From the NCBI GenBank assembly GCA_043736475.1, contig JAYTCN010000464.1, positions 1 to 43,341 of the forward strand: 43,341 bases of DNA. Direction: 5' to 3'. The stretch's first letter is position 1. The number at the start of each line of letters is the position of its first letter. The notes beneath the pieces are model-generated. The model searched no databases. It was not told where the DNA came from and saw nothing but the letters and a program-made list of their open reading frames with translations. This document shows, piece by piece, positions 8,267 through 19,999 of the stretch. The position numbers were made by a program, and so were the translations under genes. The DNA is from Paracoccaceae bacterium (GTDB lineage Bacteria; Pseudomonadota; Alphaproteobacteria; Rhodobacterales; Rhodobacteraceae).

Positions 8267-10693
8267 TTAATACAAGTCGATCCGGAACTTGTTGGCGCGC
8301 CAGTAGACGCCGGCAAGCAAGATCGCGCGTTCCACCGGATCGGTCTCGGCAATTTCTTCACCGCGCAGGTCCAGAACACGTTTCATCTCGGCCCGGCTGC
8401 CGGCACCGAAGGCGCCGTCAACAGCGATTTCGCCGCCAAATTCGTTGACCAGGCGCTGCGAAGCGGCGTTGACGGCGGCAACGGGCAGGTCGGCAAGCAG
8501 CTCGCGCGCCGACGCCGCCGAATCTTTGCCGCTCAGCGCTGCGGCCTTTGCGGCGCGCAGCGCCGCGTCTTCGGGTCCCATGCCGGGGACGTTACCCTCG
8601 GAGATGATCCAGCCCGCGTTGGCGCCGCTCCAGCCGTCGCCCCGCGACAATCCCAAATCGTACCATTCGACGGCGACGGCATGGTTGCCGGATGTGCCGA
8701 GCGCCCCACTGTACCACAGCCTGCCAAGCGAGCCCGGCGCCAGCGGATGACCGCCGCTTGCGGCCTTTTCGAACCAGGTTTCGGCCAATTTCGGGTCACT
8801 TTCCACGCCGGCAAGCCCGTCGAGGTAAACATAGCCAAGATTGTCGAAACCATAGATGTCGCCGCGAGCGGCGGATTCCTTCAGGTATCGAAATCCGCGT
8901 GGCGGGTCCGAATAGGCTGTGTCGGGATCAATGAAGTAGCTGCCCAATTCATTCATCGCGAACGTGTGGCCGAGTTCGAGCGCCCGCGACAAAAGTTCAT
9001 AACCTTCGGTGCGGACCTCGGCGTTACTGCCATAACGCAACAGTTGTTTGCCAAGGGCGTGATAGGCAAACGGGTCGCCGCGCTCGACGCCGACGCGATA
9101 CAAATCCAGCGCCGCTTGCGGTGCCTGTTCGGCGGATTTGCCCGACGTGATGGCTTCCTCCTTGGCGACCAGGACGCCCAGCGCATACCACGCACGGACG
9201 TGGCCGAGGTCCCTGGCTTTCTCAAAATCGGCGCGTGCTGCATCGAACTGCAACAGGGCAAGTTCGGCCCGGCCGCGTTGGTAATGGAATCGGCCCGCTT
9301 CGGGATATGCGGCGATGGCAGCATTGCAGGCCAGGATTGCGGCATCGGGTTCGATTTCGTTCGGATAGAGACCGAGGCCAACCCCATCGGGATCAAGGTG
9401 GTCGCCGGCCGCGCTGTCGCACGGGTCGGCGTCGAGCTTGATTTCAACTTTCGTCTCAACCCCGTTGACCGCCACGCTGAACGTGTCGGCGAGCACCGGC
9501 GCCAGCGGCTGATCTGCTGACGTCGGACTTGGCGCGCTGGTATAGACCAGCTTTTCCAGTTCCGCTGACGCCGCCGAAGGTTGGGTCGCATCGCGGCGCC
9601 GGTTGGCCAGATCGACCAGAGATATGAAACCATTTGCCGGTGGCTGGATAATGGTGATTGTGGCATCCGGATCAGACGCCAGAGCTGCGTTCAGCGCGGT
9701 TCCAATATCCACTTCGCGCTCCAGCGGTGCCTCCAGGACCAGCGTCGGTTGGTCGGGTGAACCGGTTACGGCGCTGACAACACCGGTGGCGACGCTCAAC
9801 ACCAATCCGCGCGTGTCGCCGATGCCGGACGTATCGGGTGTTTCCCGATCGGGGTCACCCGCCGAGCCATTGAGCGTGACGACCTCGACCAGAGTCGAAC
9901 TTTCCCACGGCACTTGTTTGCCTTCCGTCTGGTGGTAAACCGCGCGACGCACGTTTTCCAGCAATTGCCCGACCGGCATATCCGGGTTCGTCCGCGCCGC
10001 TTCGACCAAGGCAGAGGTGAAAGGGCTGTTACCGTTGGCCCCGTCATAAGCCACCATCCCCGGCGCAGTCGCGAACGCCAGCAGCGAATTGATCGGGGCG
10101 GTCAAGGTGTTGAACCCGTCGCGCGTTTCGGCCAACTCGCTCGAAAGGTCGGTGACCAACAAGGTATTGCCGAACGGATTGTTGCGGCAAGAGTCGAGGA
10201 TGACCAATTGCAGCCGCGCCCGCGCACCAAGAATGTTGACAACGCTGCTGAGCGATATTGCTTCAAAGGGCACGTCATAGGCGTTGTCAAGCGCGGCATC
10301 GACCGGAACCAGGTAGTTGCCGCCCGCTATTTGCAGGCCGTGGCCGGCGTAGTAGAAAATCACTTCGCTGTCCTTGTCGACGTCAAACAGGACCCGTCGC
10401 AGCACGCGCTCGAAACCAAACTTATCAAGATTCGTGTAGTCAAAAACGGTGTAACCCCGTTCCCGAAGCAGAGCGCTGACCAGTTCGGCGTCCGCGACGG
10501 CGTTGAGCAGGTCGGGGGCGACCAGATAGTCGCCGTTCCCGATCACGATGGCGTAGTGTTTAAGAACGGGATCCTGCAGATTAACCGGCCGGAACTGTAC
10601 CGGGGCAACCTCGGCGTCCGAATCCTGGGCGGCTGCCGTGCCGAGCAAGCAGGAAAAGCAGATCGCCAGCACGTTCAAAACCAGCTTTGTCAC
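8267..10693 (-). CDS. Exported caspase-family (peptidase C14) protein with Sel1-type repeats and a C-terminal peptidoglycan-binding-like domain
   Basis: A signal peptide ends at ...CLLGTAAAQD. The caspase His/Cys dyad is in context: VIFYYAGHGLQIAGGNYLVPVD and LQLVILDSCRNNPF. There are about 5 Sel1-like repeats (AWYALGVL, AYHALGKQLL, FAMNELGSYF, YGFDNLGYVYLDG...AETWFEKAASGGH, GSLGRLWYSG). The C-terminus RLVNEFGGEIAVDGAFGAGSRAEMKRVL resembles PG_binding_1. The GTG at 10693 sits 7 nt after the SD GGGAGGGG; the ORF-track start is TTG at 10699. Confidence 0.85.
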   Translation of the reverse strand: MTKLVLNVLAICFSCLLGTAAAQDSDAEVAPVQFRPVNLQDPVLKHYAIVIGNGDYLVAPDLLNAVADAELVSALLRERGYTVFDYTNLDKFGFERVLRRVLFDVDKDSEVIFYYAGHGLQIAGGNYLVPVDAALDNAYDVPFEAISLSSVVNILGARARLQLVILDSCRNNPFGNTLLVTDLSSELAETRDGFNTLTAPINSLLAFATAPGMVAYDGANGNSPFTSALVEAARTNPDMPVGQLLENVRRAVYHQTEGKQVPWESSTLVEVVTLNGSAGDPDRETPDTSGIGDTRGLVLSVATGVVSAVTGSPDQPTLVLEAPLEREVDIGTALNAALASDPDATITIIQPPANGFISLVDLANRRRDATQPSAASAELEKLVYTSAPSPTSADQPLAPVLADTFSVAVNGVETKVEIKLDADPCDSAAGDHLDPDGVGLGLYPNEIEPDAAILACNAAIAAYPEAGRFHYQRGRAELALLQFDAARADFEKARDLGHVRAWYALGVLVAKEEAITSGKSAEQAPQAALDLYRVGVERGDPFAYHALGKQLLRYGSNAEVRTEGYELLSRALELGHTFAMNELGSYFIDPDTAYSDPPRGFRYLKESAARGDIYGFDNLGYVYLDGLAGVESDPKLAETWFEKAASGGHPLAPGSLGRLWYSGALGTSGNHAVAVEWYDLGLSRGDGWSGANAGWIISEGNVPGMGPEDAALRAAKAAALSGKDSAASARELLADLPVAAVNAASQRLVNEFGGEIAVDGAFGAGSRAEMKRVLDLRGEEIAETDPVERAILLAGVYWRANKFRIDLY

Positions 10694-10762
10694 GAGCAAC
10701 CCCTCCCGAAATGCCGTGCCGGCCAGACGTTCGCCCGCACGCCCCCAAGGGACGGCAACCGA

Positions 10763-10975
10763 TCAACCCCAGCTATCGCCGCCACCACCGCCGCCGCCAC
10801 CGCCGCCGCCGCCGGAACCGTTGCCACCTTCGCGCGGGACCGCAACAGCATCCGCCGCCTGAGCGGCCGCTAATTCAGGTGTTGCGACGGCTTCCGGGGC
10901 ACAAGCCGACACCAGGGGCGCCGCCAGCAGACCAAGCAGGATTCGGAGTATTTTGGTTTTCAATTTGTACCCCAT
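10763..10975 (-). CDS. Small lipoprotein with a C-terminal poly-glycine tail
   Basis: The sequence is MGYKLKTKILRILLGLLAAPLVSAC (lipobox LVSAC), then APEAVATPELAAAQAADAVAVPREGGNGSGGGGGGGGGGGGDSWG. It lies 63-69 nt upstream of the caspase gene on the same strand. The ORF-track start of 10993 is also possible. Confidence 0.6.
   Translation of the reverse strand: MGYKLKTKILRILLGLLAAPLVSACAPEAVATPELAAAQAADAVAVPREGGNGSGGGGGGGGGGGGDSWG
10778..10813 (-). repeat. In-frame GGN (GGC/GGT) trinucleotide tract encoding 12 consecutive glycines
   Basis: The plus strand reads gcc gcc acc acc gcc gcc gcc acc gcc gcc gcc gcc. The same tract creates the spurious poly-Pro ORF 10638..10862 on the plus strand. 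Confidence 0.9.
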
Positions 10976-19544: not shown

Positions 19545-19579
19545 ATCCAGTACCCCGCAACCAAACGAAAGGTTCCACC

Positions 19580-19999
19580 ATGAAATCGCTGCTCTTGCTG
19601 ACCGCCACCTTTGGAATTACCGCCTGCACGACCTCCGGCGATCCCGCGGCAGGCGGTTTTGTCTCTGGCGTTTCCGGGGTCGCAAGCGGCTCCTACCAAC
19701 AGCGGATCGAGGCAAAAGAGGCGAGCGTGGCCGAAGGTCAGGCCCGCACGGCCGAATTGCAGGCCGAACTGGCGGCCGCAAGCCAGCAATGGTCGGACTG
19801 GAAACTGAAGCTGGTGCAAACAAGGTCCCGCCTGGCGAATGCAGGGGTCGTCATCCCGGCCAGCACCCAGGCAAAGGTGAATGCATCGCTGGCGTCAACG
19901 CCATCGGGCAACACGGACGAGGCACGACTGGCGGCCCTGCAGGCGGCGATTGCCAATGCGCGGGCGCTGGCGGCGGAACTGGAGGGGTTGTCGGCGTAA
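19580..19999 (+). CDS. Lipoprotein with Gly-rich segment and coiled-coil region
   Basis: The sequence is MKSLLLLTATFGITAC (lipobox), then GDPAAGGFVSGVSGVASGSY, then a coiled-coil-like stretch EAKEASVAEGQARTAELQAELAAASQQ. It lies 35 nt downstream of caspase gene 2. Confidence 0.7.
   Translation: MKSLLLLTATFGITACTTSGDPAAGGFVSGVSGVASGSYQQRIEAKEASVAEGQARTAELQAELAAASQQWSDWKLKLVQTRSRLANAGVVIPASTQAKVNASLASTPSGNTDEARLAALQAAIANARALAAELEGLSA

Follow-up and report, generated by a model that had tools for sequence, protein, structure and literature searches.

The stretch analysed here (the window) comprises positions 1 to 43,341 of contig JAYTCN010000464.1 (assembly GCA_043736475.1) from a bacterium of the Paracoccaceae, and contains a type VI secretion system (T6SS) gene cluster together with a block of ten genes at positions 8267-19999, situated between a LacI/sugar-catabolism region (left of 7800) and clpV, which is the subject of this study. 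The right-hand boundary of the block is formed by clpV/tssH (20267-22993, minus strand; AAA_2, AAA_lid_9 and ClpB_D2-small domains), followed by ppkA (23115-24986, plus strand), whose product is a Hanks-type kinase (Pkinase E 1.9e-32) with a transmembrane helix at residues 306-324 and a periplasmic part of about 300 aa. Further to the right lie tssA, tssB, tssC, hcp, tssE, tssF, tssG, fha, tssK, tssL, tssM, tagF and a DUF2169 gene, and the TssL of the window possesses an OmpA domain. This is a complete H1-type cluster (Group 3, Pseudomonas aeruginosa H1-like) that has no tssJ. A preceding sequence-only reading had listed the ten genes, described them as envelope-directed and placed them against clpV and ppkA, and in these respects our data agree with it: all ten are present, and their products carry the signal peptides, lipoboxes or membrane anchors expected, as read from the translations and a hydropathy scan.

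With a G+C content of 62% the window displays long open reading frames (ORFs) on both strands. Overlapping ORFs on opposite strands were settled by homology, which resolved the strand ambiguities of the block; the G+C content of third codon positions (GC3) and codon-position statistics did not discriminate between them. The genes of the block lie on alternating strands and form at least four transcription units, and a scan of the block for promoters and terminators returned nothing above shuffled expectation.

The centre of the block (11210-16114) is occupied by tagN on the minus strand and by pppA, tagY and tagM on the plus strand. TagN (11210-11827, 205 aa) has a signal peptide and an OmpA domain at residues 104-197 (Pfam E 4.3e-16), features that characterize it as a predicted soluble periplasmic peptidoglycan binder of the OmpA type. 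The adjacent gene (11922-12740) codes for a PP2C-type Ser/Thr phosphatase, which matches PP2C_2 and PP2C in Pfam and Stp1_PP2C in NCBIfam (E 5.9e-64; 215.7 bits, just below the cutoff of 230). Its true start probably lies about 20-25 codons downstream of 11922. The homologues of this phosphatase measure 241-253 aa and are always followed by tagY and tagM; as the window cluster combines a PP2C phosphatase with PpkA and Fha, its gene content corresponds to the definition of PppA (TagG).

TagY (12744-13619, 291 aa) carries a Peptidase_M15_4 domain (PF13539, E 1.3e-9) at residues 215-277, preceded by one strong N-terminal transmembrane helix (residues 7-25) and a coiled coil. The motifs SSHSWGAAVD and SMHFE correspond to the metal-binding and catalytic motifs of LAS peptidases, and a sequence search of the PDB returned no match. 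We regard TagY as a predicted inner-membrane-anchored peptidase of the type represented by TagX of Acinetobacter, an L,D-endopeptidase with a pfam13539 domain that cuts between L-Ala and D-Glu and is needed for T6SS biogenesis and Hcp export (PMC5061870). At the level of sequence the two proteins share the domain, an N-terminal membrane anchor that places the peptidase on the periplasmic side, the LAS motifs and their location in a T6SS cluster. They differ in that TagX has two transmembrane helices, whereas a single helix and a coiled coil are predicted in TagY, and in that tagY is always paired with tagM, a gene that Acinetobacter does not possess.

TagM (13595-16114, 839 aa; longest ORF from 13523) had been read as a hybrid of TssL and TssM, and several lines of evidence bear this out. 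Pfam assigns to it IcmF-related (PF06761, 1.3e-27), IcmF_C (PF06744, 4.4e-10) and DotU (1.1e-6) domains; a match to the NTPase domain IcmF-related_N (PF14331), which the TssM of the window possesses, was not found in TagM in the Pfam scan. Compared with the TssM encoded in the window, TagM shows 26% identity over TssM residues 633-1133 (E 4e-26). It has a single transmembrane helix, which spans residues 177-195 when counted from the 839-aa start and 201-219 in the numbering of the longest ORF. An AlphaFold (AF2) model built from 23 family members (pLDDT 85.6) was matched by Foldseek to TssM in the membrane complexes 6IXH and 6HS7 (E 2e-10) and to the TssM C-terminal domain 4Y7O (TM-score 0.80), and its N-terminal part to the TssL cytoplasmic domains 6Y4R, 3U66 and 4V3I (TM-score 0.50-0.65). 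TagM is thus a paralogue of membrane-complex components, in which a TssL-like cytoplasmic domain is joined by one transmembrane helix to the periplasmic domains of TssM, with no NTPase.

The start of tagM is probably the ATG at 13595, judging from the family alignment; the publicly called product (797 aa) begins too late. With this start the gene overlaps the end of tagY by 25 nt and regains an N-terminal PRTVIRP motif. The TssL of the window has GRTRIRP. In Agrobacterium, TssL carries a PpkA/Fha phospho-threonine site at Thr14 (DLPpTVVEI), and TagM was considered as a possible carrier of a site of this type; we rejected this idea because no more than about 22 of 78 species loci keep the motif and the rhizobial TagM proteins lack it.

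The distribution of the central genes was followed in a scan with one genome per species, in which a TagM relative was found in 132 species genomes; the best 80 loci were analysed, and the window's proteins were run by tblastn against them. The best 80 carriers belong to the Paracoccaceae (Tabrizicola, Rhodobacter, Paracoccus, Rhodovulum, Sulfitobacter, Shimia, Ruegeria, Amaricoccus and others) and the Rhizobiaceae (Rhizobium, Sinorhizobium/Ensifer). The order tagN, pppA, tagY, tagM, with tagN on the opposite strand to the other three, is kept in 74 of these 80 loci, and T6SS core genes occur in the same locus (within 22 kb or less) likewise in 74 of 80. In these relatives the set is either followed by vgrG on the strand of tagM and by tagF, tssM, tssL, tssK and tssJ on the opposite strand, or preceded by tssC, tssB, tssA and ppkA on the strand of tagN and by clpV on that of tagM. 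The vgrG gene stands 3' of tagM in about 60 relatives, and none is present in the window. In one Amaricoccus locus (L003) the four genes stand without a T6SS gene within 10 kb, and in another locus (L083) the same holds for tagM alone, so the set is not always physically inside a cluster. We conclude that tagN and pppA-tagY-tagM form a lineage-wide accessory set of this type of T6SS. The sequence-only reading had linked the whole block to the T6SS; this synteny holds for the central four genes; the genes at the right end of the block are also found in loci without a T6SS.

The block had moreover been presented as undescribed, which is no longer correct for its core. The Group-3 T6SS of Sinorhizobium fredii USDA257 was described in silico in 2025 with a hybrid protein, an OmpA protein and an M15 peptidase adjoining PppA, and these were named TagM, TagN and TagY (PMC11872809). 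The S. fredii TagM comprises 821 aa with a DotU domain, one transmembrane helix and two IcmF domains; TagN combines an OmpA domain with a signal peptide, and TagY belongs to the M15 peptidases. The authors propose that the three proteins help to anchor the machine and to open the wall (PMC11872809). TagM1 of Burkholderia, in spite of the similar name, is an unrelated lipoprotein. The window shares with S. fredii the same four genes, their architectures and their order next to clpV and ppkA, and its TagM is about 45% identical to that of rhizobial replicons (including S. fredii and S. americanum), in which the proteins bear only generic PGAP names. The window differs from S. fredii, however, in that the set is inverted relative to clpV, with a cassette of barrel and protease genes between them, in that a protease operon follows tagN, and in that tssJ is missing. 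Compared with the H1-T6SS of P. aeruginosa, which belongs to the same phylogenetic group and likewise has a PpkA with a periplasmic part, the PP2C phosphatase PppA, Fha and TagF, the window is distinguished by the position of pppA, which does not lie by ppkA but heads the tagY-tagM operon.

To the left of tagN, on the same strand, lie two genes with a more restricted distribution. The outer one (8267-10699) codes for an exported caspase-like protease of 810 aa (Peptidase_C14 E 4.9e-37) with TPR/Sel1 repeats (Sel1 4.9e-13), a signal peptide MLVTKLVLNVLAICFSCLLGTAAAQD and an intact catalytic dyad (His in YYAGHG, Cys in LDSCR); a sequence search of the PDB recovered a MALT1-like protease domain, with the Sel1 region at 500-700. 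Tabrizicola and Rhodobacter have orthologues of 813-818 aa (46-48% identity), which stand at the corresponding place by tagN and share its orientation there. Between this gene and tagN is a small ORF (10763-10993, 69-76 aa) that encodes a lipoprotein with the lipobox LVSAC and a glycine-rich C-terminal tail (GGGGDSWG), for which neither Pfam nor NCBIfam gave a match. Lipoproteins with a lipobox, a linker rich in Pro, Ala and Lys and a DDGGSGGGGW tail are present between tagN and the C14 gene in seven further genomes (L018, L020, L021, L026, L031, L037 and L050), and these conserved counterparts indicate that the doubtful-looking 76-aa ORF of the window is a real conserved gene. Its glycine run is expanded in the window, and the DDGGSGGGGW tail looks invariant in the relatives.

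Proteases of the C14 family next to tagN are found well beyond the window. Of the 74 species loci with tagN, 24 have a C14 ORF no more than 700 bp away from it; all 24 come from Paracoccaceae, and no such ORF stands there in the 12 loci in which clpV takes that side of tagN. Two arrangements can be distinguished: in ten species of Tabrizicola, Rhodobacter and their relatives, as in the window, a C14 gene with TPR/Sel1 repeats (810-818 aa) follows tagN on the same strand, and the interval between the two, examined in the window and in seven of the ten, contains the small lipoprotein in each case; in fourteen species the C14 gene is convergent on tagN. Most of the proteins adjacent to tagN have a signal peptide, all 24 retain the Cys motif and all but three the His motif; TPR/Sel1 repeats are usual and PG_binding_1 or PG_binding_3 domains occasional. 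With a p20 domain and an intact His/Cys dyad, a signal-like N-terminal helix, Sel1/TPR repeats and, in relatives, PG_binding domains, the C14 proteins resemble the prokaryotic caspase homologues (metacaspases/orthocaspases) of an earlier survey, which, as far as it was consulted, reports no link of C14 proteins to T6SS clusters or tagN (PMC3501461). No report connecting C14 proteases, caspases or metacaspases with the T6SS or with tagN was found in full-text literature searches, C14 proteins in T6SS clusters are not mentioned in a 2026 review of T6SS accessory genes, and a search for literature on T6SS accessory genes in Rhodobacterales yielded nothing relevant.

It could be argued that the C14 proteases, and with them the barrel and the lipoproteins at the right end of the block, are unrelated envelope or conflict genes which have gathered at a variable cluster edge. 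Their positions at the boundaries of the cluster, where gene content varies, are consistent with this explanation, as is the independent existence of the right-hand cassette; C14 proteins with Sel1 or peptidoglycan-binding domains are common in Alphaproteobacteria generally, and PADLOC recognizes no more than a generic "caspase" among them. Against such a chance assembly stands the frequency of the C14-tagN adjacency, which recurs in two arrangements and in many genera. In Alphaproteobacteria, the survey gives about 0.4 caspase or metacaspase homologues per 1000 proteins (PMC3501461), and against this background 24 adjacencies in 74 loci are far above chance, even though the count is inflated by shared ancestry. 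The one-strand order of tagN, lipoprotein and C14 gene is furthermore conserved in at least 10 species, and the right-hand cassette lies by clpV in two different cluster layouts. We therefore consider an accidental gathering unlikely, and regard the small lipoprotein and the C14-Sel1 protease as a recurrent, optional partner of tagN in Paracoccaceae. An interpretation of the block as a defence system was rejected, because PADLOC gave only generic caspase, MotB and PP2C matches.

The right-hand part of the block (16145-19999) comprises four genes. A lipoprotein of 211 aa (16145-16780, minus strand; lipobox LLAAC) combines a glycine zipper (Gly-zipper_Omp 0.0033) with a coiled coil. On the same strand it is adjoined by a gene for a 12-stranded outer-membrane beta-barrel of 315 aa, counted from Met27 of a 341-aa ORF (16790-17737, ORF to 17815), with the C-terminal sequence FGYRF. 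On the plus strand follow a second exported C14 protease of 513 aa (18003-19544; Peptidase_C14 E 2.9e-33, signal peptide, His/Cys dyad) and a coiled-coil lipoprotein of 139 aa (19580-19999; lipobox GITAC), for which no family match was found. Both C14 proteins of the window match PF00656 and share GHG and D[SA]CR motifs. The closest solved relative of the second is the MALT1 paracaspase (E 4e-15), and its C-terminal half is uncharacterised. A repeat scan found nothing above shuffled expectation, and the four genes are not flanked by repeats.

The barrel gave no match in Pfam or NCBIfam. Its AF2 model (pLDDT 79.9) shows 12 strands with helices N-terminal to the barrel, and Foldseek relates it to the autotransporter beta-domains of EstA, BrkA, NalP and EspP, to a COG4313 channel and to FapF (TM-score 0.5-0.66). 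The likeness to NalP, EspP, BrkA, EstA and FapF, which are the best matches, lies in the 12 strands that follow helices; unlike autotransporters, the window form has no passenger domain, and its relatives have only about 100 extra N-terminal residues. PF03797 (Autotransporter) does not match the window barrel, and one distant relative matches it at E 0.0097. FapF is encoded alongside the cysteine protease FapD, a neighbourhood that recalls the C14 gene beside the window barrel. A profile search of 1.84 billion representatives placed the barrel in a family with 911 clusters at 50% identity, of which 381 scored below 1e-30; the length of most members is about 410 aa, and a Pfam domain was found in none of the ten tested. 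Most of these relatives have an extra N-terminal domain of about 100 aa, and a conserved DPVAGNPxSL motif precedes their barrel. When metagenomes were scanned with the alignment of the family, only the already-known locus was returned.

The arrangement of these four genes in the window recurs in two metagenome-assembled genomes (MAGs; L008 and L009) and in part in a third locus (L010). Full-length homologues of the second C14 protease are present in L008 and L009 (69-73% identity), in L010 (39%) and in L089 (34%), a locus with no T6SS nearby, while the 139-aa lipoprotein has homologues with 71-73% identity in L008 and L009, encoded 3' of the C14 gene, and one with 30% in L089, where it comes last in the cassette. 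In L089 all four homologous genes are co-directional, in the order barrel, C14 protease, glycine-zipper lipoprotein and 139-aa lipoprotein. L088 has the barrel and a lipoprotein only, within a purine-catabolism region that has no T6SS, and L090 (10001-21239) contains a distant barrel whose neighbours are a caspase-like protease of the CHAT type, an OmpA protein and two Hanks-type kinases, also with no T6SS nearby. The last locus hints that units of barrel and caspase may pair with Ser/Thr kinases elsewhere. A second, more distant T6SS cluster (L091) has clpV followed by a C14 gene (523 aa, assigned by position and Pfam annotation only), a 139-aa gene directly after it, the barrel and the glycine-zipper lipoprotein, with clpV, the C14 gene, the barrel and the glycine-zipper gene on one strand. 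Between this cassette and DUF2169/PAAR-like genes L091 also encodes, at 11994-17663, a 1611-aa protein with VWA, SdrD_B, FG-GAP and RTX domains and a TbpB-like protein. In a neighbour-joining tree of the barrel, T6SS-linked and unlinked members interleave. We conclude that the right-hand genes constitute a self-contained cassette of outer-membrane barrel, caspase and lipoproteins, whose link to the T6SS is facultative. The proposal that the 11.7 kb form one module is not supported by these patterns: the block consists of three parts with different distributions, the cassette stands alone in L089, and the barrel occurs without a T6SS in L088 and L090.

The absence of tssJ, which had been anticipated for this machine, is confirmed for the window. 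Between fha (32396-33670) and tssK (33724-35055) a gap of 53 bp (33671-33723) contains no tssJ; a tblastn search of the window with the TssJ of the related MAG GCA_031430535.1 (L094) found nothing below E 2.7, and none of the three lipoproteins of the block matches T6SS-SciN (PF12790). In 53 related loci with no detected cassette, and also in L094, the next-closest relative, tssJ occupies the site that separates fha from tssK. The gap between fha and tssK is, on the other hand, also empty in L093, which belongs to the same assembly as L009, an Oceanomicrobium MAG with the window's cassette, so that both cassette-bearing genomes that were checked have no tssJ at its fixed site. This coincidence between the cassette and the loss of tssJ is suggestive. 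Neither it nor the placement of C14 genes by the TagM set was found in the literature searched.

One explanation for the coincidence would be that the barrel and its lipoproteins provide the outer-membrane anchor or passage of a machine that has no TssJ, in the manner of the accessory proteins that compensate for its absence elsewhere, namely TsmK in Acinetobacter (PMC10564176) and, in part, TagV in Serratia. The window resembles these systems in that TssJ is missing and lineage-specific envelope proteins and a TagX-type peptidase accompany TssL and TssM, and the cassette lies directly by clpV both in the window clade and in L091. No homology to TsmK or TagV was found, although no search was aimed at it. 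In contrast to TsmK and TagV, however, the candidate substitutes of the window also occur without a T6SS, and their barrel is a member of a very large family. Since the two genomes that have the cassette and lack TssJ are sister lineages, they probably represent a single evolutionary event; moreover, tssJ could sit elsewhere in these incomplete genomes. Agrobacterium runs its T6SS without TssJ and is not known to carry such a cassette. All in all we regard a replacement of TssJ by the cassette as improbable.

A further possibility, favoured by the sequence-only reading, is that the entire block acts as one trans-envelope sensor, in which the status of the outer membrane or the cell wall, possibly by way of proteolysis, is fed into the switch of PpkA, PppA and Fha, as a functional replacement of TagQRST. 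That none of the genes corresponds to TagQRST is not entirely accurate. Domains of TagR (FGE-sulfatase/COG1262) and of TagS and TagT (ABC) were found in none of the scanned ORFs of the window, but the glycine-zipper lipoprotein matches the NCBIfam model VI_TagQ (NF041250) weakly (E 1e-4, 21.7 bits against a cutoff of 300, positions 49-143 of 301). The match is consistent: all six glycine-zipper lipoproteins tested, two of them from loci without a T6SS, hit the N-terminal half of the model (positions about 10-174 of 301) with E 8e-10 to 1.3e-4. Nevertheless, with scores of 21-38 bits against the cutoff of 300 bits, this is a remote similarity at best, which may reflect the composition of glycine zippers and coiled coils.

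A sensor would also supply the input which the transmembrane helix and the periplasmic part of PpkA need, and pppA lies within the block. The kinases beside the distant barrel of L090, together with its CHAT protease and OmpA protein, would fit the idea, as would a gene in L010 (17079-19025) that joins a C14 protease to an FGE-sulfatase domain of the type present in TagR. The latter gene is separated by 5 kb from a tagN-pppA-tagY-tagM set, around which no T6SS core was seen within 10 kb, and is followed by a TPR protein and a pair of sigma and anti-sigma factors of the extracytoplasmic function (ECF) type. We rejected it as a link to TagR, because it lies behind a housekeeping gene and adjoins the sigma/anti-sigma pair, with which it may form one unit. 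A common sensor is, in addition, difficult to reconcile with the different distributions of the three parts: most PpkA-bearing clusters of the lineage have neither of the C14 genes nor the barrel cassette, the cassette of L089 and the barrel and lipoprotein of L088 occur with neither a T6SS nor kinases nearby, and the block is divided into at least four transcription units. The existence of such a device thus appears as improbable to us as the substitution of TssJ.

The reading that we prefer, and hold to be probable, treats the block as a mosaic: three sets of envelope genes have come to lie at that end of a Group-3 T6SS cluster where clpV and ppkA are found, and for each of them a role of its own can be proposed. 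TagM would dock in or beside the TssL-TssM complex through its TssL-like and TssM-like halves and would bring TagY to the site of assembly, where TagY might cut peptide stems as TagX does, such that the complex could cross the wall; TagN would then re-anchor the complex to the peptidoglycan. As pppA would be co-transcribed with tagY and tagM, the brake on the PpkA/Fha switch would be made together with the helpers of assembly. The C14-Sel1 protease and the small lipoprotein could represent a periplasmic protease, tethered to the wall or the outer membrane and directed at Arg or Lys residues, whose substrate would be an envelope component in the vicinity of the machine. Finally, the barrel cassette may be an outer-membrane protease unit which works alone in other genomes and has been recruited beside clpV in this lineage.

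Several observations weigh against this mosaic. TagX/TsmK and TagL are the analogues from which we infer the docking and wall-opening roles of TagM, TagN and TagY. At the N-terminus of TagM, the match to DotU is marginal in the profile search (28.8 bits against a cutoff of 27), and BLAST of TagM against the window's own TssL gave no significant match, so that the domain is divergent and its assignment rests mainly on the fold match. In three loci (L003, L010 and L083) no T6SS genes were seen within 10 kb of the tagM set or of a solitary tagM, and the census, with its one genome per species, is uncorrected for shared ancestry. Furthermore, two distinct types of cluster have the cassette by clpV, and the cassette-bearing genomes that were checked lack TssJ, so that the presence of the cassette may not be accidental.

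The exported caspase-like proteases might also be true accessory factors of the T6SS in Paracoccaceae, forming with the TagQ-like and coiled-coil lipoproteins and the barrel a proteolytic unit tethered to the outer membrane or the wall. Such a unit would act on the periplasmic domain of PpkA and so gate the PpkA/PppA/Fha switch, or would replace the outer-membrane anchoring by TssJ. This idea seems unlikely to us, and we continue to prefer the mosaic of three sets.

At the far end of the cluster (40448-42588 and beyond), tagF is followed by the DUF2169 gene and a gene for a 347-aa protein. The same order is seen in L093, L001 and L091, where a Tox-PAAR-like gene comes next, which suggests an effector-loading set.

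How the membrane complex of a T6SS crosses the peptidoglycan and reaches the outer membrane without TssJ is a problem for which lineages differ in their solution. PppA, together with a TssL/TssM hybrid, a peptidase of the TagX type and an OmpA protein, would represent a widespread alphaproteobacterial solution, found in at least 74 species, and culturable carriers of the TagM set include S. fredii USDA257, Rhizobium spp., Tabrizicola soli CCTCC AB 2017177, Rhodobacter sp. SY28-1, Shimia sp. MIT1388, Rhodovulum and Paracoccus. The core of the block, TagM, TagN and TagY, is already described in silico. What is added here is how widely the core set is spread among Paracoccaceae, its recurrent association with a C14 protease, the conservation of the small lipoprotein and the coincidence of the cassette with the loss of tssJ. 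The barrel draws attention to an unannotated family of outer-membrane proteins with more than 900 clusters at 50% identity. Should the proteases indeed form a tethered unit that serves the secretion machine, regulated proteolysis would be a new input to, or a new principle of assembly for, the T6SS.

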